NCBI GenBank assembly: GCA_048938445.1
Contig: JBHLME010000020.1
Coordinates: 1 to 44,058 of the forward strand
Direction: 5' to 3'
DNA: 44,058 bases
Source of the DNA: Promethearchaeota archaeon
GTDB taxonomy: Archaea > Asgardarchaeota > Lokiarchaeia > Sigyniarchaeales > SOKP01
Position numbers and translations under genes: made by a program. The notes under the pieces are model-generated. The model was not told the DNA's origin, made no database searches, and saw only the letters and a program-made list of their open reading frames with translations. This document shows, one piece after another, positions 8,335 through 19,192 of the stretch. Each line of letters begins with the position of its first letter. Position 1 is the stretch's first letter.

Positions 8335-8419
8335 GCGGGAATTGCCAAGTTTGGTCAAAGGCGCTGGACTCAGAATCCAGTCTCGTAGGAGTTCGGGGGT
8401 TCAAATCCCCTTTCCCGCA
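8335..8419 (+). tRNA. tRNA-Leu (anticodon CAG), intronless, no encoded CCA
   Basis: Acceptor GCGGGAA/TTCCCGC + discriminator A; anticodon arm CTGGA-CTCAGAA-TCCAG; long variable arm; T arm GGGGG-TTCAAAT-CCCCT. Confidence 0.97.
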
Positions 8420-13011: not shown

Positions 13012-13899
13012 TTAAGAAATAAATCCACTACTTCTTAAACCTCTTGTAAGCCATTCCAATTGTAATTCTAATCCCCCCAAGTGCTCTTTTGTAAAAATTT
13101 TAGAATTTGGAATGAAAGTATCGAAATATTGTGAAGCAATATAATTCATCGAAGAATCTTCATTATACCATTTGATTATTGCATATTTTGTTTGAAAATG
13201 TAGGTCTTCCATTTCATTTAGTATTCTATCGCATTCTTCACCCGCCCAGACACCATAATGCGCTAAAGAAATAGAATCATATTTATCGCGTAATTCTCTC
13301 AATTTTTGAAATGACTTAAGAACTTCTGGTTCATAAAAATCGGATGGCATAAAAGTAGGTTGAAAGGTATCATAATCGAGTCTATCAATTACAGTGTCTC
13401 CAACAAAAATGTTTTTATTTTTGGAATCTAAGAGAGCAATTGAATCCATGGTATGTCCAAAGAAATTCAGAACTTCTAATTTTAAACCGTTTAAATCAAT
13501 AATATCACCTTCTTTTAATGGGGTTACATCAAGCACGGGATCAACTCTAGTATCAAATAAACTATTTATTTTATCTGGATTTTTTAAATTATCAATTGCT
13601 TTTTCAGAAGCTAAGAATTCAACATCAATATCTTTCATTGCTTTCTTTATCTTTTCTGCTCCCTGGAAATGGTCCCAATGACTATGTGTAAAAAAAATTT
13701 TATGAATCGGAAAAATATTCAATTCTTGTAACTTTTTTATAATCTTTCTTGCAGAATACCCCGCAGAAGTGTCAATCATCATTCTAAGACCGTCATTTTC
13801 AATCACGTAGACAGACATTGTTCCATTCAATCCAAACAATAACCCATCAATAAGATAAGTATTATCGTTAAATTTTCCATCAGAATTTATGAAAACCAT
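13012..13899 (-). CDS. Metallo-beta-lactamase-fold hydrolase (paralog 1)
   Basis: THSHWDH, GHT, FVGD, AHYG. Confidence 0.92.
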   Translation of the reverse strand: MVFINSDGKFNDNTYLIDGLLFGLNGTMSVYVIENDGLRMMIDTSAGYSARKIIKKLQELNIFPIHKIFFTHSHWDHFQGAEKIKKAMKDIDVEFLASEKAIDNLKNPDKINSLFDTRVDPVLDVTPLKEGDIIDLNGLKLEVLNFFGHTMDSIALLDSKNKNIFVGDTVIDRLDYDTFQPTFMPSDFYEPEVLKSFQKLRELRDKYDSISLAHYGVWAGEECDRILNEMEDLHFQTKYAIIKWYNEDSSMNYIASQYFDTFIPNSKIFTKEHLGGLELQLEWLTRGLRSSGFIS

Positions 13900-14045: not shown

Positions 14046-14933
14046 TTAAGAAATAAATCCACTTGCCTTTAAGCCATAAATGAGCCACTTTAATTGCATT
14101 TGCAATCCTTTCAAGTTATCTCTTCTATAATTTCTAGAATTTGGGATAAATTTATCATAGTATTTTGAAGCAATATATTCCACAGAAGGATTTTCCTCAT
14201 ACCATTTAATTATCGAATCTTTTGTTTTAAAATGTAGGTCTTCCATCTCATCTAATATTCGATCGCAATCCTCATCCATCCAGACTCCATAATGAGCTAA
14301 TGAAATAGAGTTAATCTTTTCTCTCATATCCCTTAATTTTTGAAATGTTTTTAAGATCTCAGCTTCATTAAAATCTGTTGGCATAAATGTGGGTTGAAAA
14401 GTTTCATAATTCACTCTGTCTATAATAGCATCTCCTACGAAAATATTTTTATTCTTAGAATCAAAAATCGCAATTGAATCCATTGTATGGCCAAAAAAAT
14501 TTAACACTTCTAAATTTAGACCATTTAAATCAATGATATCTCCTTCTTTTAAAGAGGTAACATCTTCAACGGGATCAACAGTATGTTCAAACGCCGAATT
14601 AATTCTATCAGGATTATGTAAATTGGGTATAGCCTTTTCAGACGCCAGAACTTCAATATCGGTTTCTTTCATTAAATTTTTTAATAGATTTACACCTTGA
14701 ATGTGATCCATATGAGAATGTGTTAATAGAATCTTATTTATGGGAAATAAGTTCAATTCTTTTAATTTTTTGACGATTATATTAGTTGCATTGTCTGATG
14801 CTGTATCAATTAACATTCGCATCCCATTATTCTCAATTACATACATAGAATAAAGTTTTTCTATTCTAAATAACAATCCATCAATAAGATAAGAATTATC
14901 ATTAAATTTACCTTCTGAATATATGAAAACCAT
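14046..14933 (-). CDS. Metallo-beta-lactamase-fold hydrolase (paralog 2)
   Basis: THSHMDH, GHT, FVGD, AHYG; same 295-aa length as its neighbour. Confidence 0.92.
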   Translation of the reverse strand: MVFIYSEGKFNDNSYLIDGLLFRIEKLYSMYVIENNGMRMLIDTASDNATNIIVKKLKELNLFPINKILLTHSHMDHIQGVNLLKNLMKETDIEVLASEKAIPNLHNPDRINSAFEHTVDPVEDVTSLKEGDIIDLNGLNLEVLNFFGHTMDSIAIFDSKNKNIFVGDAIIDRVNYETFQPTFMPTDFNEAEILKTFQKLRDMREKINSISLAHYGVWMDEDCDRILDEMEDLHFKTKDSIIKWYEENPSVEYIASKYYDKFIPNSRNYRRDNLKGLQMQLKWLIYGLKASGFIS

Positions 14934-15066
14934 TATATCACACTAAAATTATTATAAAGTTAATATTCTTTTTAGATAAAGTTAATTTCTTAATTAAAAA
15001 ATATTTTTGTGAACATTTTAAGGTATTCAAGATCTCTGCGATAAGTATAAGCAAACCAGATTTTTT

Positions 15067-15082
15067 ACAAAAAATTTAAAAT
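15067..15082 (+). promoter_or_regulatory. Putative BRE/TATA promoter for the leader-cimA transcript
   Basis: A-rich ACAAAAAA followed by TTTAAAA (15075-15081), about 26-32 nt upstream of ATG 15107, consistent with a leaderless start. Confidence 0.45.
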
Positions 15083-15106
15083 GTTTGAAACCAATGTATA
15101 ATTAAT

Positions 15107-15175
15107 ATGAAACAAAAAATAATTCCAAGCATATGTATTATAGCTAGTATCATTATTGGGATTATTATTATTTAA
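15107..15175 (+). CDS. Putative Ile-rich leader peptide MKQKIIPSICIIASIIIGIIII
   Basis: ATG..TAA, 22 codons, 12 Ile (8 ATT, 3 ATA, 1 ATC), no Leu/Val/Phe; immediately upstream of cimA. Confidence 0.7.
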   Translation: MKQKIIPSICIIASIIIGIIII

Positions 15176-15182
15176 TTTCATA

Positions 15183-15244
15183 AAAGAAATTTTAAACTCT
15201 TTTAACCTTTCTTTTCTTAACGTTTCTGGGTTTAAAATTTCTTT
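15183..15244 (+). promoter_or_regulatory. Long hairpin between the leader ORF and cimA (candidate attenuator structure)
   Basis: AAAGAAATTTTAAAC (15183-15197) and GTTTAAAATTTCTTT (15230-15244) form a perfect 15-bp inverted repeat, plus U.G and C-G pairs; 28-nt pyrimidine-rich loop. Confidence 0.7.
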
Positions 15245-15284
15245 GTTCAAGATAAAATAAAAACAGTGGAGTGTGAGAAAAGTA

Positions 15285-16883
15285 ATGGCCGAAAAAAAAG
15301 TGTATATTTATGATGCAACCTTGAGAGAGGGTAGTCAGAAAACGGGAATTTCGTTTTCAATGGAGGATAAATTTAGAATTATTGAAAGACTGATTCAAGA
15401 CCTTCACATCCCAATGATTGAGGCAGGATGGCCAGGATCAAATCCTAAAGATATTGATCTCTTTCAAAAAATTAAAGAAGTAGGACTGAATGGAACGAAT
15501 ATTTACGCTTTTGGGTCAACTCGTCGTAAAGACAGTTGTGCAGAAGATGATCCTAGTATTCAAGCAATCATTGATGCGGAAGTAAAAGGAGCAACTATTT
15601 TTGGGAAATCATGGGATTTACACGTTGAAACTGCCTTAGAAACTACACTTGAAGAGAATTTACTAATGATTCAAGATACAATTGAATGTTTAAAAAACAA
15701 TAAAATTGAGGTAATTTATGATGCTGAACATTTTTTTGATGGATATAAGAATAATAAAGAATACACACTGAAATGTATAGAAACGGCTAAAAACGCTGGA
15801 GCCTCTTGGATAACTTTATGCGATACAATTGGAGGAATTTTACCTCATGAACTAAAACCAATCATTTCTGAAGTAAAAAGCTGCGTTGGTAATGTCCCTT
15901 TAGGAATCCATGCTCATAATGATTCTGGAATGGCAAATGCAATTGCTCTTGAAGCTTATCTTCAAGGTGTCGAAATGATCCAAGGAACATTAAATGGATT
16001 TGGGGAAAGATGTGGAAATACTGATCTAACAACAATCTTACCAGTATTAAAATTAAAAATGAATGTTGATTGCATAAGTGATCATGATTTACAAAATTTA
16101 ACAGAAGTCTCTCACTTCATTTATGAAATGGCAAATTTACCTGGAGCACCGGACCAACCATTTGTAGGAAAAAATGCATTTTCTCATAAAGCCGGCATGC
16201 ATATTTCTGCAATGTTAAAGAATTTACGAACATATGAACACATAAATCCTGATGTAGTTGGTAATACTCGAGATATAAAAGTATCGGAATTGGCGGGGAA
16301 GAGCTCAGTCCTACACATGGCAGAGAAGTTCAAGCTTCCTTTAACAGCTGACAATCCAAAAGTAAAAGCCATTCTTGATGTGTTGAAGGAGAAAGAGAAT
16401 CAAGGATATTCTTTTGAAGGTGCTGAAGGTTCTTTAGAGATTTTGATGCGTAGTATGGACATGAGTATTCAAGATCCAAATTATTACAGGAATAAGTTTT
16501 TTAACTTAGAGGGTTTTAGGGTTTTAACTGAAATGTACAAGGATACATTGTTATCAGAAGCTACAATTAAAGTAAAAGTAGGAAATGACCATTTTCATAC
16601 TGCAGCTGAAGGAAATGGTCCTGTAAATGCTTTAGATAATGCTCTTAAGAAAGCTTTAGTGTACTTTTACCCTAGTATAAAAGAAATCGATTTATCTGAT
16701 TTTAAAGTTAGAATTATCAATCAAGCGGGTACTGCATCAGTCGTGAGAGTATTAGCAGAAACTCATGATAATGAGGGAGCATGGGGCACGATTGGAGCTC
16801 ATGAAAACATTATTGTTGCTTCTTGGGATGCTTTAGTAGATTCATATGTTTACAAGTTATTGAAGAATAAAGCAAATTGGTAA
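15285..16883 (+). CDS. cimA: Citramalate synthase (LeuA/CimA family); alternative GTG start at 15273
   Basis: YDATLREGSQ, EAGWPGSNPKD, IFGKSWDLHV, YDAEHFFDG, HAHND, GERCGN and a C-terminal regulatory domain (GNGPVNALD); signature of the bacterial-type CimA clade. Confidence 0.88.
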   Translation: MAEKKVYIYDATLREGSQKTGISFSMEDKFRIIERLIQDLHIPMIEAGWPGSNPKDIDLFQKIKEVGLNGTNIYAFGSTRRKDSCAEDDPSIQAIIDAEVKGATIFGKSWDLHVETALETTLEENLLMIQDTIECLKNNKIEVIYDAEHFFDGYKNNKEYTLKCIETAKNAGASWITLCDTIGGILPHELKPIISEVKSCVGNVPLGIHAHNDSGMANAIALEAYLQGVEMIQGTLNGFGERCGNTDLTTILPVLKLKMNVDCISDHDLQNLTEVSHFIYEMANLPGAPDQPFVGKNAFSHKAGMHISAMLKNLRTYEHINPDVVGNTRDIKVSELAGKSSVLHMAEKFKLPLTADNPKVKAILDVLKEKENQGYSFEGAEGSLEILMRSMDMSIQDPNYYRNKFFNLEGFRVLTEMYKDTLLSEATIKVKVGNDHFHTAAEGNGPVNALDNALKKALVYFYPSIKEIDLSDFKVRIINQAGTASVVRVLAETHDNEGAWGTIGAHENIIVASWDALVDSYVYKLLKNKANW

Positions 16884-16912: not shown

Positions 16913-18061
16913 TTAAAAATAGAGCGAAAAATGTTTTTTTATCAATTCTTCTACTCCTTTGAATTCCGAAATATCAATTAAATTATTTAAATCTTGTATT
17001 TGTATCAATTCTTCCTTAAATAACGATTCAAATTCCATTGCGAACTCATGCATCATTGAAGATAAGAAATCATTTTTCTTTTTTGTTGTTAGAAGCACTG
17101 CAAATCCAAATTCATTATTATAATCAACAATTATATCCGAACTTTTAGTTTTTAACACGTTAATTTGATTGTTTGTATCAATAAACTCTGCTACTATATG
17201 GTTTAATCCAATCAAAATATTTCCCCATATCGAGGATTCGGTTTTAGGTGTTTCATATTCAAATCTGTATGAATAGAGCTGAACTCCAGATTTATGATAA
17301 ATATCAATCGAATAGATCATATTAGTTAAATTTGTAATTGATATTTTACGAGTTTTCATTAACCGAATCAATAATAATAATAATACAAATTGTACTAGAT
17401 AAAAATGTATATCTCTCATAACCGTTAATTCTAACAAGAGATAAAAAATATAGAATAAAAATGGAATACAGAGTAATATGTTAATAAATAAAAGAGATCT
17501 ACTCAAACTTTTATCTCTTGAATAGAGATGAATTAATGAACCATAATAAAGAAAGAAAGAGATGAAATAGATACAAGTCAAAAATAAAATTATCTTAGAT
17601 ACTAAATTAAATGAGTAGTTGATAATCGTGAGATCTAGTATTATAAAAGGAGGTAATTCAATTGAATTAATTGTAATTTGAATTGAATCTTGTATGATTA
17701 GTGTCCCTATTAATAAACCAAATAAAAACATAAAAAGAATATACGTAATGAGATCTATCTTGGTATAGTGTTTTATTGATGAGATTCCTATTAATAAAAG
17801 TCCAAAATTCAAAAATTCAAAAAGAATTGAAAGTTTAAACAGGAAAATGTTTAAATTTCCAGGAAAGAGGATAATAAGTGAAAAAATAAAAAGACTTGGA
17901 AAAATAATACTGCTTAATATGAAGGATACGCGGGTGATTAAGATTTTATAATTAAAAAAACCCTTTTTATATTTAGGTTTAATAACAAAAGGTAAGCTAA
18001 AACTCAAGATAATTGAAATAGTGTAAATTATAACATATAGAATAAAAAATAAAGCGGACAT
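16913..18061 (-). CDS. Multi-TM (about 7) protein fused to a C-terminal longin-like domain
   Basis: Hydrophobic N-terminal 240 aa; C-terminal IYHKSGVQLYSYRF...ILIGLNHIVAEF...FAVLLT...F...F. Confidence 0.7.
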   Translation of the reverse strand: MSALFFILYVIIYTISIILSFSLPFVIKPKYKKGFFNYKILITRVSFILSSIIFPSLFIFSLIILFPGNLNIFLFKLSILFEFLNFGLLLIGISSIKHYTKIDLITYILFMFLFGLLIGTLIIQDSIQITINSIELPPFIILDLTIINYSFNLVSKIILFLTCIYFISFFLYYGSLIHLYSRDKSLSRSLLFINILLCIPFLFYIFYLLLELTVMRDIHFYLVQFVLLLLLIRLMKTRKISITNLTNMIYSIDIYHKSGVQLYSYRFEYETPKTESSIWGNILIGLNHIVAEFIDTNNQINVLKTKSSDIIVDYNNEFGFAVLLTTKKKNDFLSSMMHEFAMEFESLFKEELIQIQDLNNLIDISEFKGVEELIKKHFSLYF

Positions 18062-18070
18062 TGTATATAG

Positions 18071-19192
18071 TTATCTTTTAATATTTTTCTTCTGTATATA
18101 TGGTTTAAAATACTCATTAATAAGTTCTTTGGTATTTTTAAATGCAGAAATATCTATTAACAAACTAGCTTTTTCAAGTTCTCTTAATGTTTCCTTATTA
18201 GTTTCATTAAATTTTTCCATCAGATTTTTCACAGCTTTCGTAATTATATGATTTTTTTGGTTTGTGATTAATAGGACGGCATAACCGTAATCAATGTCGT
18301 ATTGAAATACTAAATCATGATTTTCTAATTTAATAAGATTAAGTTGATCTTTTTTATCGAGGAATTTTGAAAGAATATGGTTAATCCCAATTAAAATAGA
18401 TCCTTTTAATAGTGTTTCATCAGTTTCTTGTCCTGTTTTAAAATTATAGGAAAAAAGTAGAATACCACTTTTATGAAATATTATGAATTCGTTAATTTCA
18501 TTAGATATTGCAATAAATGCATGAGGATTTTTAACAATCACATAAAGGTTCATTACAGAGCTAAGGATATAAAATAAATTACTTATATCCGCAAATAAGA
18601 AAGTTTGGGTGATTGTATAGTATGTATAAGTAAAAATGATGAAACCCAATAGGAAAAGAGATAGGAACAAATATTTTTCTATTTTTTGGTCAGGTATATT
18701 CGCTCGACTTCTAATATGAACATGAATGATAAAAAACAGGATTAAAAAATCGAAAAATACAATAAAAATCAACAAAAATGGATTATGAAATATATAAACA
18801 TAAAAAGTGCTTGTAGGAATAATTTCTACTGAATCTTGAAAACTCATTAAACTTATTATGATACCAGCAATCAGACAGAGAATTAAAAGAGGAATTTTTT
18901 CTATTTTATAACTTTCTAACGTTAAACCATAAATTATTAATAATAAACTCATATCTATCATTCTCATGATGATTGAAAGCTTCCAAAATAAAAGTGCATA
19001 CTCATAAGATATAAGAATTTCTGTAGACAAATAAAAAAACAAATAAAAAAGAATGCCATAAAACAAATAGGTAAAAATAAACAAGATAAAATTAGGTGAA
19101 GTATAAAGCTTTTTATAATTAATGATAATATAGGATATTGAAACTATAGATAAAATGAATGAGATTGTTAAGGGGATTATGCCAATTATCAT
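18071..19192 (-). CDS. Multi-TM (about 7) protein fused to a C-terminal longin-like domain (paralog)
   Basis: IFHKSGILLFSYNF...ILIGINHILSKF...YAVLLIT; 9-nt gap to the next gene. Confidence 0.7.
   Translation of the reverse strand: MIIGIIPLTISFILSIVSISYIIINYKKLYTSPNFILFIFTYLFYGILFYLFFYLSTEILISYEYALLFWKLSIIMRMIDMSLLLIIYGLTLESYKIEKIPLLILCLIAGIIISLMSFQDSVEIIPTSTFYVYIFHNPFLLIFIVFFDFLILFFIIHVHIRSRANIPDQKIEKYLFLSLFLLGFIIFTYTYYTITQTFLFADISNLFYILSSVMNLYVIVKNPHAFIAISNEINEFIIFHKSGILLFSYNFKTGQETDETLLKGSILIGINHILSKFLDKKDQLNLIKLENHDLVFQYDIDYGYAVLLITNQKNHIITKAVKNLMEKFNETNKETLRELEKASLLIDISAFKNTKELINEYFKPYIQKKNIKR

Follow-up and report, generated by a model that had tools for sequence, protein, structure and literature searches.

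An isoleucine-rich leader and a conserved stem upstream of cimA in a Promethearchaeota archaeon: a candidate archaeal attenuator

In a Promethearchaeota archaeon, the gene for citramalate synthase (cimA) is preceded by a short, Ile-rich open reading frame (ORF) and, just past the stop codon of that ORF, by a long AU-rich stem, termed P3, and the conservation of this arrangement within the archaeal family makes its identity as an Ile-sensing leader element well supported at the level of sequence comparison. The reading that we favour, with a confidence that is evenly balanced rather than high, is of an Ile-sensing, ribosome-mediated attenuator made from archaeal parts, in which P3 is the read-through fold around a terminator-like tract with multiple U4 runs; its polarity, and termination as its output, are what we infer from the arrangement. 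The window analysed is the whole of a 44,058-nt stretch (contig JBHLME010000020.1 of assembly GCA_048938445.1), and relatives are given by their locus labels (L005 and so on) where they need to be told apart. The elements of the leader region are:

15069 to 15081, + strand: A-rich stretch and then the TATA-like TTTAAAA (15075-15081), putative archaeal promoter of the leader transcript
15107 to 15175, + strand: leader ORF, MKQKIIPSICIIASIIIGIIII, 22 codons of which 12 are Ile, with the stop TAA at 15173-15175
15107 to 15112, + strand: 5' strand of helix P1, AUGAAA, in the region of the leader start codon
15118 to 15126, + strand: 5' strand of helix P2, AAUAAUUCC, Ile-Ile-Pro codons
15158 to 15166, + strand: 3' strand of helix P2, GGGAUUAUU, Gly-Ile-Ile codons
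15176 to 15181, + strand: 3' strand of helix P1, UUUCAU, right behind the stop and abutting the base of P3
15183 to 15199, + strand: left arm of P3, AAAGAAAUUUUAAACUC, its perfect part AAAGAAATTTTAAAC at 15183-15197
15186 to 15197, + strand: conserved 12-nt core of the P3 left arm, GAAAUUUUAAAC
15200 to 15227, + strand: loop of P3, 28 nt, pyrimidine-rich and with U4 runs, TTTTAACCTTTCTTTTCTTAACGTTTCT
15228 to 15244, + strand: right arm of P3, GGGUUUAAAAUUUCUUU, its perfect part GTTTAAAATTTCTTT at 15230-15244
15273 to 15277, + strand: Shine-Dalgarno (SD)-like GUGAG of cimA, 7 nt upstream of its ATG
15285 to 16883, + strand: cimA, citramalate synthase, the putative regulated gene (TIGR00977 equivalog, 674 bits, cut-off 450)

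The leader ORF, the stem and their conservation

With an Ile fraction of 0.55, the leader ORF ranks second among the 9739 intergenic short ORFs of the genome, for which the 99.9th percentile is 0.50, and its Ile codons are spread over the entire ORF, right to the stop. An open, Ile-rich leader ORF of 17-24 codons is found in 26 of 27 relatives, the exception being L011, in which the leader stop is lost and the frame continues through the stem. In the variable middle part of the 27 leaders, outside the helix-forming codons, Ile makes up 158 of 269 residues (background 13%) while Leu, Val and Phe together account for 31 of the same 269. The TATA-like hexamer starts 32 nt upstream of the leader ATG and such a hexamer starts 29-35 nt upstream in 18 of 27 loci; the count rises to 21 when three loci are taken to begin at an in-frame ATG situated 9 nt further upstream. 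No SD-like motif precedes the leader ATG in the sequence inspected at this locus. The leader mRNA therefore appears, from its sequence, to be leaderless or nearly so, with a predicted start, and the ORF is presumably translated. A search for sequencing runs that contain the stretch listed 15 DNA runs and no RNA run.

Citramalate synthase opens the pyruvate route to Ile, and the logic of the downstream gene thus fits Ile sensing. The gene begins 110 nt past the leader stop in the same orientation, and G-rich motifs (GGUGA, GGAGG, GUGAG, GAGGU) occur at the place of its SD-like sequence in nearly all relatives, which suggests that translation of cimA starts behind a long 5' UTR and not on a leaderless mRNA. 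A scan of 79 named cimA loci gave no sign that the leader was inherited together with a bacterial-type cimA, since a clearly Ile-rich ORF was present only at the two Promethearchaeota loci, with weak Ile-leader candidates at two bacterial ones.

The two arms of P3 (15183-15197 and 15230-15244, a pair listed by the repeat finder) are perfectly complementary over 15 bp and the stem grows to 17 bp through T15198.G15229 and C15199-G15228. Together with the 28-nt loop and the 7-nt gap (15176-15182) that separates the stem from the leader stop, these coordinates are as an earlier, sequence-only reading had given them. The left arm begins 10 nt past the first base of the stop codon and its core 13 nt past, with P3 beginning 6-16 nt past that base in most relatives. 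All pairs of the core are A-U or G.U except the closing ones, the loop varies between 24 and 49 nt among relatives, and UUUCUUUU, at 15208-15215 in the loop, repeats the 3' half of the right arm. Taken alone, P3 has an energy of −15.9 kcal/mol at 37 °C.

At every one of the 27 family loci whose upstream DNA is complete, and which represent eight genera, cimA is preceded by both the leader ORF and P3, and the end of the ORF and P3 can also be seen at a 28th locus that is cut by a contig end. P3 is the sole consensus structure retained by RNAalifold, and 86.8% of its alignment cells pair, a share that falls to 64.7% and 66.2% if one shifts the partner by a column. In six pairs both sides have changed, in the L104 group the two arms have grown by paired insertions, and all 11 one-sided changes in the 12-bp core give U.G or G.U, which argues for selection on the plus-strand RNA and not on a DNA palindrome; A-to-G substitutions in the right arm retain U.G pairs in five lineages. 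The covariation is thin, since there is no variation at most pairs and the set consists of related sequences. In a test for co-evolving pairing on 19 representatives (of the 27 loci, the motif search did not recover L010 and L112, and six near-duplicates were left out), with 13 tests uncorrected, the P3 arms gave p=0.001, the left arm with the loop copy UUUCUUUU a modest p=0.009 and the ORF start with the loop a marginal p=0.044, while there was no cognate signal for the loop with the SD region, the stop region with the left arm, or the right arm with the SD region. The left arm and the loop copy are thus the one exception to the finding that neither P3 arm has a conserved, mutually exclusive partner.

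Of 135 family genomes, 27 give a match to a covariance model, one match each; every one of these carries cimA, and the 105 genomes without cimA give none. This one-to-one association and the conserved G.U-type changes give strong comparative support to the proposal, made in the sequence-only reading, of a non-bacterial, ribosome-sensing attenuation element, and the conservation of the stem in orthologs on which that reading depended is borne out. Its view that the U-rich tract is not a terminator of the GC-stem/U-tail type holds as well, given the A-U/G.U core and the lack of a U-run 3' of P3 in about one third of relatives (the L104 group, L109, L111, L113, L114 and L116); a run of U5-U8 follows P3 in several others (L005, L007, L112, L115). 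At gathering thresholds Rfam matched only a tRNA in the window, and with E up to 10 the region 15050-15320 gave two chance-level matches (14.7 and 8.8 bits against gathering values of 229 and 77).

Could the repeat be an accident of AT-rich DNA, or the remnant of a miniature mobile element? In the 4.63-Mb genome there are four inverted repeats with perfect arms of 15 bp or more and 10-60 nt between them, where two 1.5-Mb order-3 Markov simulations, giving 0 and 1, lead one to expect about 0-3 per genome, and the window itself has 29 imperfect ones. Considered by itself, the repeat thus does not clearly exceed what chance would give, and the significance of P3 comes from its position and conservation. 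It is the latter, at 27 of 27 orthologous loci in eight genera, that refutes a chance or mobile origin and leaves it with a negligible probability; in addition, a genome search for the two-arm motif with at most two mismatches per arm recovered the cimA site exactly, the other matches being unrelated low-complexity pairs, and this single-copy state, like the one model match per genome, speaks against the MITE remnant that the sequence-only reading had named as an alternative. It is also very improbable that the arms work as DNA, offering a transcription factor or TBP-like proteins two inverted sites between the leader and cimA. The arms are conserved in sequence beyond what pairing alone requires and each contains TTTAAAA, resembling the archaeal TATA box consensus, but the 11 wobble-keeping core changes spoil both the DNA symmetry and TTTAAAA (GTTTAGGATTTC, GTTTAAGATTTC, GGGTTTGAATTTC), the insertions in the L104 group are paired between arms, the spacer (32 nt here, variable at 24-49 nt) is unusual for an operator, and a motif that is single-copy in the genome is not the operator of a regulon.

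U-tracts, ribosome position and the choice between folds

Archaeal termination uses oligo-U tracts and a CPSF73-like factor. TTTCTTT and T5 are enriched 7-10 times just past stop codons throughout this genome (T5 by 7 times at 0-24 nt past them), and an aCPSF1/FttA orthologue is encoded (TIGR03675, 875 bits, cut-off 580, at G000:C127:2083-3963), and the setting of U-tracts and aCPSF1/FttA in which the sequence-only reading had placed the element is thereby supported. There are three U4 tracts within 40 nt past the leader stop in the window, and at least two within 75 nt in 25 of 27 leaders, whereas as many are found at 59% of 1475 gene ends and in 38% of 1991 regions upstream of genes. Hairpins were rejected as a general terminator feature of the genome, 10-13 bp stems at gene ends being only 1.3-1.5 times as frequent as in shuffles. 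According to the available text of one study, the affinity of aCPSF1 for terminator U-tract RNA climbs with the number of U4 tracts, and a Lokiarchaeota orthologue acts likewise (PMC8716108). The accessible part of a 2026 review distinguishes hairpin-independent and hairpin-enhanced configurations of archaeal termination, reports that weak Pol III sites gain strength from a hairpin close by and treats archaeal polymerases as not known to require hairpins.

Two further helices close the ORF. P1 pairs AUGAAA with the nearly invariant UUUCAU behind the stop and has 5-6 bp in most relatives; it takes the form AUGAAU/AUUCAU in L006, L010, L012 and L013, has wobbles in L112, L117 and L118, and loses its sixth pair in several other relatives. 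P2 consists of 9 contiguous bp between AAUAAUUCC and GGGAUUAUU, with 7-12 contiguous bp in 21 of the 25 relatives evaluated, and the two ORF halves gave p=0.015 in a test of cognate against non-cognate duplexes (19 representatives).

In the favoured mechanism, P3 would be the main stem of a leader RNA that acts in cis from the 5' end of the cimA message. The transcript would start at or beside the leader AUG and the pioneer ribosome would translate the 22-codon ORF. When charged tRNA-Ile is scarce, the ribosome would stall inside the ORF, keeping P1 and P2 open and leaving the region past the stop free; as the polymerase advances, the A-rich left arm would pair with the U-rich right arm to form P3, which would fold away about 60 nt of U/C-rich RNA resembling the organism's own multi-U4 terminators, and transcription and expression would proceed into cimA. 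When Ile is plentiful, the ribosome would reach the stop codon, where its footprint would extend over the P1 strand behind the stop and into the base of P3, and the U-rich RNA, unfolded in the decision window, would bring about a premature end via the U-tract and aCPSF1/FttA route. P3 is assigned as the ON fold because a ribosome on any sense codon leaves it free and because this is the polarity that a biosynthetic gene needs. The sequence-only reading had likewise equated the folded stem with read-through, and its polarity is retained here for the first of these reasons, as a proposal.

That a ribosome at the stop covers the start of the left arm, as had been suggested, agrees with the geometry, the stop-codon ribosome overlapping the stem base. 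The accompanying claim that the U-tract is thereby exposed is weak at this locus, since P3 without its lowest 3-6 bp, the share lost under such a ribosome, still has −12.4 to −7.4 kcal/mol at 37 °C and most of the U4 tracts are in the loop, unpaired in either state. When ribosome footprints were masked in 27 sequences, the mean probability of P3 went only from 0.55 to 0.45, a change that is not consistent and includes several zeros that are indel register errors (the means were 0.55, 0.45, 0.55, 0.58 and 0.61, with footprints at the stop, the last Ile, a middle and an early codon). As the polymerase makes the U4 tracts of the loop ahead of the right arm, and as these tracts remain unpaired when P3 forms, P3 cannot block intrinsic termination at them; any effect on termination could only be on a slower, factor-dependent route.

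Three other readings of the RNA have to be weighed against this one. The decision might be made before P3 is transcribed, with the folded P1/P2 leader serving as an upstream hairpin that boosts termination at weak U4 tracts; a ribosome anywhere in the ORF would then prevent the fold and allow read-through, and P3, present later and only in read-through transcripts, would be a protective or locking 5' structure or a small-RNA stabiliser. The spread of Ile codons along the whole ORF suits such a rule, the conserved helices P1 and P2 span the ORF from end to end, helices that hold the last codons and stop are also found in Trp, Val/Leu and sister-family leaders, and the hairpin-enhanced termination and Pol III strengthening of the 2026 review, in its accessible part, provide precedents. 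We nevertheless regard this as a minority possibility, because P3, the most conserved element, gets no part in the decision, the 18 nt from the end of P1 to the first U4 tract are far from the known spacing of hairpin-dependent terminators, and hairpins are not enriched at ordinary gene ends of the genome. A translational switch, in which the loop is an anti-SD that pairs with the ribosome-binding region of cimA (OFF) unless P3 keeps it away (ON), seems to us about equally improbable. It draws on the fold of 15100-15290, which is a caveat for P3: the minimum-energy structure pairs 15205-15227 with the SD and start region of cimA and lacks P3, although P3, when forced, is only 1.5 kcal/mol worse (−33.3 against −34.8). 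The sequence-only reading had left out P1 and P2, the leaderless start and this possible pairing of the loop. Relatives L104, L105 and L119 fold in the same way, the duplex of the loop with the SD region has a mean of −10.6 kcal/mol, and the retained SD-like motif agrees with translation of cimA from a long 5' UTR. Yet the complementarity is generic, as non-cognate pairs of loop and SD region reach −10.4 kcal/mol (p=0.36), some relatives such as L005 have no loop match to GGUGA by eye, and free RNA already favours P3 in 20 of 26 relatives folded; moreover, predicted pairing of the cimA ribosome-binding region stays at 0.51-0.55 with no consistent change with ribosome position (in a masking with indel register errors in some sequences), and P3 and the loop-to-SD pairing could coexist as a pseudoknot.

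The third reading transfers bacterial logic, with P3 and its U-rich 3' side as the terminator (OFF) and a stalled ribosome freeing an upstream segment that would capture the left arm as an antiterminator. UUUCUUU stands at the end of the right arm, continued by the U5-U8 run noted above in several relatives, and the A-rich base of the left arm complements the U-run, as is common in bacterial terminators; the left arm also has a GAAAUU to which AAUUUC of the stop region is complementary, and in the L104 group this pairing extends to 8 bp. This reading is nonetheless doubtful in several respects and we give it a low probability. The U-run is absent 3' of the stem in about one third of relatives, the candidate antiterminator is weak (−4 kcal/mol, p=0.13, no cognate signal) and variation in its segment follows P1, ribosomes stalled on Ile codons cannot occlude P3, and archaeal polymerases are not known to require hairpins, as far as the accessible part of the 2026 review goes. 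A ribosome at the stop codon, furthermore, would destroy the stem in the sister family, where the stems of three unrelated Ile leaders likewise begin at +10, have 8-9 bp and would vanish under it, and in the other leaders; a terminator stem would then work the wrong way round, as the biosynthetic gene would be expressed when the amino acid is plentiful.

Known attenuators and the other leaders of the genome

Attenuation by leader peptides is a textbook bacterial mechanism that needs ribosomes close behind RNA polymerase and hairpin terminators, and the trp, his, thr, leu, ilvGMEDA and ilvBN leaders are its classical ribosome-mediated examples. The cimA leader shares with these, and with the uORF of Corynebacterium ilvBNC as far as its available description goes, an ORF of end-product codons directly upstream of a co-oriented biosynthetic gene, RNA helices placed relative to the leader stop, and the same regulatory logic. 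In the broad sense of a leader-peptide attenuator it has the codon-enriched ORF, the position and orientation, and the conserved RNA structure relative to the stop. It differs in that its host is an archaeon and its mRNA appears to be leaderless, in that its regulatory codons run up to the stop, in that its U-tracts sit in the loop of an all-AU stem of 12-17 bp, and in having no counterpart in Rfam, its bacterial leader, T-box and riboswitch families included, with E relaxed to 10. Neither of the marks of the classical trp/ilv type was found: RNAalifold and the duplex tests detected no exclusive helix set of the 1:2 / 2:3 / 3:4 kind in the cimA leaders, and there is no GC-rich terminator stem with an immediate U-run or U-tail.

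Rho-dependent attenuation (tnaC, Mg2+/FMN leaders) hides or exposes a rut site, while attenuation of the ermC type is translational. In both, the position of a ribosome or an alternative fold sets the access to a factor-loading stretch or a ribosome-binding site, and by analogy they may be the closest functional counterparts of the favoured model and of its translational rival, respectively, although the Rho-type systems employ Rho rather than a CPSF73-like nuclease, other signals and another domain of life. Leaderless polycysteine short ORFs at the 5' end of mycobacterial transcripts are reported to be Cys-responsive attenuators, which likewise control pathway genes by a run of codons for one amino acid, but they are bacterial, sense Cys rather than Ile and, in the available text, are described without a comparable stem around U-tracts (bioRxiv 10.1101/834739). 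Like the archaeal U-tract terminators that depend on aCPSF1/FttA, the cimA leader has several U4 tracts, in its loop and right arm, and a genome that encodes the factor; the terminators covered in the accessible parts of the two studies consulted, in contrast, lie at ends of genes or operons or at internal operon sites, not in a regulated 5' leader, and none is described with an enclosing conserved stem or a leader peptide (PMC8716108; PMC11616081). No paper on amino acid leader peptides in archaea was found in the literature searched, which is not proof of their absence, and the cimA leader looks like the first archaeal version of the ribosome-sensing leader-peptide switches.

The same genome has a Trp-rich leader ahead of trpD-C-F-B, which is kept in 24 of 25 family loci, and Val/Leu/Ala-rich leaders ahead of ilvE and two acyl-CoA genes. 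The retention of the Trp leader makes the Ile leader much harder to dismiss as a compositional accident of AT-rich DNA. On balance it seems somewhat probable that the Asgard family runs a set of leaderless attenuators (Ile/cimA, Trp/trp, and branched-chain or Ala/ilvE and acyl-CoA) in which the first ribosome leaves a multi-U4, aCPSF1-type terminator either open or folded into a hairpin. If this is true, it would be the first ribosome-mediated attenuation in Archaea, resting on a eukaryote-like termination machinery and reaching with archaeal parts the regulatory logic of the bacterial systems, and it would show that the closest prokaryotic relatives of eukaryotes employ the coupling of transcription and translation for regulation. 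The leader would then also provide a compact natural reporter for such coupling and for factor-dependent termination in Asgard archaea, and codon-biased leaderless mini-ORFs would be a simple predictor of amino acid regulons in uncultured archaea.

Some further candidates in the genome were rejected. Met-rich 'leaders' at four sites (C113, C75, C139 and C109) arise from reading GAT/GAA-rich acidic tails out of frame, and a His-rich mini-ORF (C60) has no his gene within 450 nt downstream. RNAalifold on MAFFT alignments of the Trp leaders gave fragments only. Each of the leaders ahead of ilvE and the acyl-CoA genes is followed by a hairpin with a pyrimidine-rich loop, and in the leaders of this genome other than that of cimA the stem begins 2-7 nt past the stop.

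An isoleucine-rich leader ahead of cimA

The inverted repeat that precedes cimA, the gene for citramalate synthase, belongs to a real element, and one that is larger than the sequence-only reading had reported. Very probably it is an attenuator, a conserved regulatory RNA of Asgard archaea that works through an Ile leader peptide and has counterparts for Trp and the branched-chain amino acids. Promethearchaeota is a phylum within the kingdom Promethearchaeati, which we take to be the Asgard group, and the window corresponds to contig C93 in a genome of 256 contigs (completeness 96.5%, contamination 8.2%). The closest named cimA loci are in MAGs titled Promethearchaeota archaeon or uncultured archaeon (72-73% protein identity), and the next closest are bacterial (~50% identity).

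Features of the leader region (all on the + strand)
15107-15175, +, leader ORF of 22 codons, MKQKIIPSICIIASIIIGIIII, with TAA at 15173-15175
15107-15112 and 15176-15181, +, P1, pairing of the start region AUGAAA with UUUCAU just past the stop
15118-15126 and 15158-15166, +, P2, 9 bp between Ile-Ile-Pro codons AAUAAUUCC and Gly-Ile-Ile codons GGGAUUAUU
15183-15197, +, left arm of P3, AAAGAAATTTTAAAC, 15 perfect bp with the right arm
15230-15244, +, right arm of P3, GTTTAAAATTTCTTT, 15 perfect bp with the left arm
T15198.G15229 and C15199-G15228, +, extension of the stem to 17 bp, read from the sequence
between the extended arms, +, P3 loop of 28 nt, TTTTAACCTTTCTTTTCTTAACGTTTCT, read from the sequence
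15273-15277, +, GUGAG ahead of the cimA ATG, read from the sequence
15285 (ATG), +, cimA, citramalate synthase, the next same-strand gene (TIGR00977, 674 bits against a cut-off of 450)

The 15-bp repeat, its U.G and C-G extension, the 28-nt loop and the 7 nt between the leader TAA and the start of P3 agree with what had been read from the sequence. Taken bare, the repeat is unremarkable: the 4.63-Mb genome (~28% GC) contains 4 perfect repeats that are 15 bp or longer and have spacers of 10-60 nt, and two order-3 Markov simulations of 1.5 Mb gave 0 and 1.

The context of the repeat is shared among relatives. cimA is present in 22 of 41 sampled relatives and in 30 of the 135 genomes of the same family, and at all 27 family loci where the whole upstream region is readable a short, ATG-started, Ile-rich ORF (17-24 codons, 8-14 Ile; consensus M-K/N-x-I-I-P-...-I-I-I-G-I-I(-I-I)) is followed by the same stem. 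The three other loci are L003, cut at a contig end with the ORF end and stem visible; that of genome G150, where cimA is broken by a contig end and the covariance model places the element on a separate contig; and that of G046, where cimA has no upstream DNA. At one locus (L011, genome G008) the leader stop is CAA in place of TAA, and the frame passes through the stem for 57 codons, ending at a TAA that lies beside the cimA ribosome-binding site, 9 nt ahead of the ATG; the locus may be deregulated, may be a coupling variant or may be misassembled.

A covariance model built from the ORF end and stem and run on the 135 family genomes, which fails on two divergent training loci, gave one match per genome in 27, all of which carry cimA, and none in the 105 family genomes lacking it. 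The stem motif is also single-copy in the window's genome. The element is therefore neither a mobile-element remnant, such as the MITE considered in the sequence-only reading, nor a general operator. No Rfam family matched the leader region, at gathering thresholds or at E up to 10.

The leader has an Ile fraction of 0.55, which puts it second of the genome's 9739 intergenic short ORFs (99.9th percentile, 0.50). In the variable middle of the 27 leaders, outside the helix-forming codons, Ile makes up 158 of 269 residues against a background of 13%, and L, V and F together only 31 of 269, so the bias is for Ile codons specifically and not for hydrophobic residues in general. That Pro and Gly are the non-Ile residues conserved is explained by P2, which their codons form. 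A TATA-like hexamer with an A-run ahead of it starts 29-35 nt before the leader ATG at 18 of 27 loci, or at 21 if three loci start at an in-frame ATG 9 nt upstream; no Shine-Dalgarno-like motif precedes that ATG, and we infer that the transcript is leaderless. Nearly all loci have a G-rich SD-like motif 7-9 nt before the cimA start, which would fit translation from a long 5' UTR.

Elsewhere in the window, two tandem paralogous ORFs of 295 codons each (13012-13899 and 14046-14933, both -) lie upstream of the leader and are transcribed away from it. They resemble metallo-beta-lactamase-fold hydrolases (HxHxDH motif, read by eye), and this divergent neighbourhood is not conserved in relatives. 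A second tandem pair, of multi-pass membrane proteins with a similar soluble C-terminal domain in both (16913-18061 and 18071-19192, both -; 382 and 373 codons), converges on the 3' end of cimA, with only 29 nt from the cimA stop to that of the 16913-18061 ORF. The sole Rfam match in the window is a tRNA (8335-8419, +; 57.3 bits), which at 85 nt against a 71-position model may have an intron or a long variable arm.

P3 as a probable helix in the transcript

The sequence-only reading had proposed covariation in orthologs as a check of the stem, and this was carried out on a MAFFT alignment of the 27 upstream regions (A1) that was not fitted to structure. RNAalifold returned a single consensus helix with a 12-bp core, GAAAUUUUAAAC/GUUUAAAAUUUC. 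In the 17-pair stem 86.8% of cells pair, against 64.7% and 66.2% when partners are shifted by one column, and six pairs have changes on both sides (matched by 3 of 500 shuffles). The covariation score is 0.136 (matched by 0 of 500 shuffles); with the aligned sequences related and most pairs invariant, the covariation is modest. Two-sided changes include AAAC/GUUU to AACC/GGUU in loci L006, L012 and L013 and UUUU/AAAA to UUCU/AGAA in L112, and both arms carry matched insertions in the L104 group. In all 11 core cells with a change on just one side, the result is U.G or G.U; the lineages with right-arm A-to-G changes are L004, L010, the L104 group and L112, and the left arm has one, in L012. The same one-sided changes would be mismatches in opposite-strand RNA or duplex DNA, and they also spoil the TTTAAAA motif. 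Since their direction consistently keeps U.G or G.U pairs, the comparison points consistently to a plus-strand RNA helix.

Of 25 loci evaluated, 21 have a P2 of 7-12 contiguous bp. P1 reaches 5-6 bp in most loci, with AUGAAU/AUUCAU variants in four and a mismatched sixth pair in several others. Both helices are present in the full-leader folds, among those listed. As only one base separates the end of P1 from the start of P3, the two helices could stack. The 3' half of the right arm usually recurs in the loop as UUUCUUUU, often capping a small inner stem.

The isolated P3 stem has a predicted energy of -15.9 kcal/mol (37 C). The minimum-energy fold of 15100-15290 (-34.7 kcal/mol, z = -2.4) lacks P3 and pairs the pyrimidine loop with the cimA ribosome-binding region in its place, and forcing P3 in the full leader costs 1.5 kcal/mol (-33.3 against -34.8 unforced). 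In the relatives, P3 is part of the free-RNA minimum-energy fold in 20 of 26 folded.

Termination setting and the direction of the switch

The sequence-only reading had assumed an archaeal setting of U-rich tracts and aCPSF1/FttA, the CPSF73-like termination factor, and the genome bears this out. The factor is encoded (TIGR03675, 875 bits; cut-off 580). T5 runs occur at 0.036 per position in the 25 nt past stops against 0.005 inside genes (7-fold), TTTCTTT and TTTTCTT are enriched 6-10-fold after stop codons and A5 hardly at all, and gene-end stems of 10-13 bp occur at only 1.3-1.5 times the shuffle frequency. The T5 enrichment, with hairpins hardly enriched at gene ends, indicates that this organism terminates transcription in the archaeal manner, at oligo-U tracts. 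Past the leader stop, 75 nt have the same character: two or more U4 tracts occur in 25 of the 27 leaders (against 59% of the 1475 gene ends and 38% of the 1991 upstream regions of genes), pyrimidine content is 63% (52%; 46%) and the mean longest pyrimidine run is 10.4 nt (7.5; 5.8). According to PMC8716108, the KH domains of aCPSF1 bind terminator U-tract RNA with an affinity related to U-tract number, and a Lokiarchaeota orthologue cooperates with U-tracts likewise.

In the proposed mechanism, a stall on Ile codons would allow the A-rich arm to fold up the U/C-rich region as P3, giving read-through into cimA, while fast arrival at the stop would leave ~60 nt of unstructured RNA with multiple U4 tracts behind the polymerase, leading to termination dependent on U-tracts and aCPSF1. 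Ribosome protection is assumed to reach ~12 nt from the A-site codon. On this value, a ribosome with a sense codon in the A site covers the transcript to ~10 nt at most beyond the stop's first base and leaves P3 free, and one at the stop codon overlaps the 3' strand of P1 and the lowest 3-6 bp of P3. The stem is assigned to the ON state because the sense-codon ribosome leaves it free and a biosynthetic gene must be on during the stall. P3 would then have the role that the antiterminator, the ON-state fold, has in bacterial attenuators; the regulatory logic is not new, but the set of parts is.

The identification as an attenuator is held with high confidence; its polarity, with P3 as the read-through fold, and termination as the output are an evenly balanced call. 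The sequence-only reading had put this polarity forward as speculative, and the geometry sides with it, but P3 without its lowest 3 or 6 bp retains -12.4 or -7.4 kcal/mol, and folding with the ribosome footprint masked, which that reading had suggested, did not give a consistent switch. The loop U4 tracts, moreover, are transcribed before the right arm exists and are unpaired within P3. In a comparison of cognate with non-cognate duplexes (19 representatives, 13 tests, uncorrected), low p values were obtained for the stem arms (0.001), the left arm with the loop (0.009) and the two halves of the ORF (0.015), and the stop region with the left arm gave p = 0.13.

These observations together keep three other readings under consideration. 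The folded leader, P1 with P2, may itself be a termination-enhancing hairpin, with P3 merely a later lock. The loop may instead act as an anti-SD in a translational switch, as in the pairing found in the minimum-energy fold, but its complementarity to the cimA SD region is strong and generic (-10.6 against -10.4 kcal/mol, p = 0.36). Least likely is P3 as a terminator hairpin of classical bacterial logic, since the ribosome geometry is against it. In the full-text literature searched, no archaeal example of an amino-acid leader peptide or of ribosome-mediated attenuation came up; in the passages checked, 'leader peptide' and 'attenuation' have other senses or refer to bacteria, and neither term occurs in a 2026 review of termination signals.

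Related leaders and other mini-ORFs

Other mini-ORFs of the same genome are also biased towards one amino acid and precede matching genes.

Mini-ORFs of the window's genome (G000)
C239:1408-1464, +, MAPENNSFWRWQWPWRWQ, 5 Trp (locus L123/L128), upstream of trpD
C71:17141-17248, -, MISSINNTRKNAIAVNAFARSIIAAAIAAVAAVLL, Ala/Ile/Val bias, upstream of ilvE (424 bits)
C117:18788-18862, -, ...VVVVDVVVVLL, Val/Leu bias, upstream of acyl-CoA dehydrogenase
C206:14462-14563, +, ...LLLVVRVVVLL, Val/Leu bias, upstream of methylmalonyl/isobutyryl-CoA mutase large subunit (786 bits)
C141:32913-33002, +, rich in Val, Leu, Ala or Ile like the preceding three, followed by a short ORF near the contig end

The Trp mini-ORF is followed by a 90-codon ORF and then, from C239:1913, by trpD-trpC-trpF-trpB (trpD: TIGR01245, 414 bits). 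At 24 of 25 family loci trpD is preceded by a mini-ORF rich in Trp (2-5 in 16-34 codons), the exception having just 412 nt of upstream DNA. In the C239 mini-ORF the last Trp codons belong to the 5' arm of a GC-rich hairpin whose loop contains or adjoins the stop, and this hairpin has compensatory changes among relatives. Three of the four branched-chain mini-ORFs share an N-terminal NNT(S/R/K)KN(T/A); the codons of this motif, AAUAAUACU, pair with AGUAUUAUU, the V-L-L codons at the end of the ORF. In the Trp and branched-chain leaders, too, the last codons or the stop lie inside a helix, and a hairpin with a pyrimidine-rich loop starts 2-7 nt past the stop; the C117 loop has a perfect 11-nt complement ~45 nt downstream.

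In a sister family, three loci (L021, L022 and L023) have unrelated Ile-rich leaders before cimA, of 36, 36 and 16 codons, that end in IIC. In all three the stop codon lies in the loop of a small hairpin, and a GC-containing hairpin of 8-9 bp (about 8-15 predicted pairs), enclosing two U4-U5 tracts, begins 10 nt beyond the stop's first base. A stop-codon ribosome would, by the same overlap, destroy the shorter stems of these and the other leaders. No Ile leaders were found before cimA in two GC-richer families or at 77 bacterial loci, bar two weak bacterial candidates. The strongest argument that ribosomes read such ORFs for regulation is that one architecture recurs with different sequences and different amino acids.

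Two further mini-ORFs of this genome are compositionally biased. One, at C60:29420-29467 (-), is His-rich (MKFKRYHIHHIHHIH, 6 His in 15), and no histidine gene follows it on the same strand within 450 nt. The other, at C143:20242-20343 (+), is Cys-rich (MTATACKCGSACISASCKCGSACISSCKCGSSC, three CKCGS(A/S)C repeats) and its sequence suggests a small peptide, metal-binding or modified, rather than a leader.
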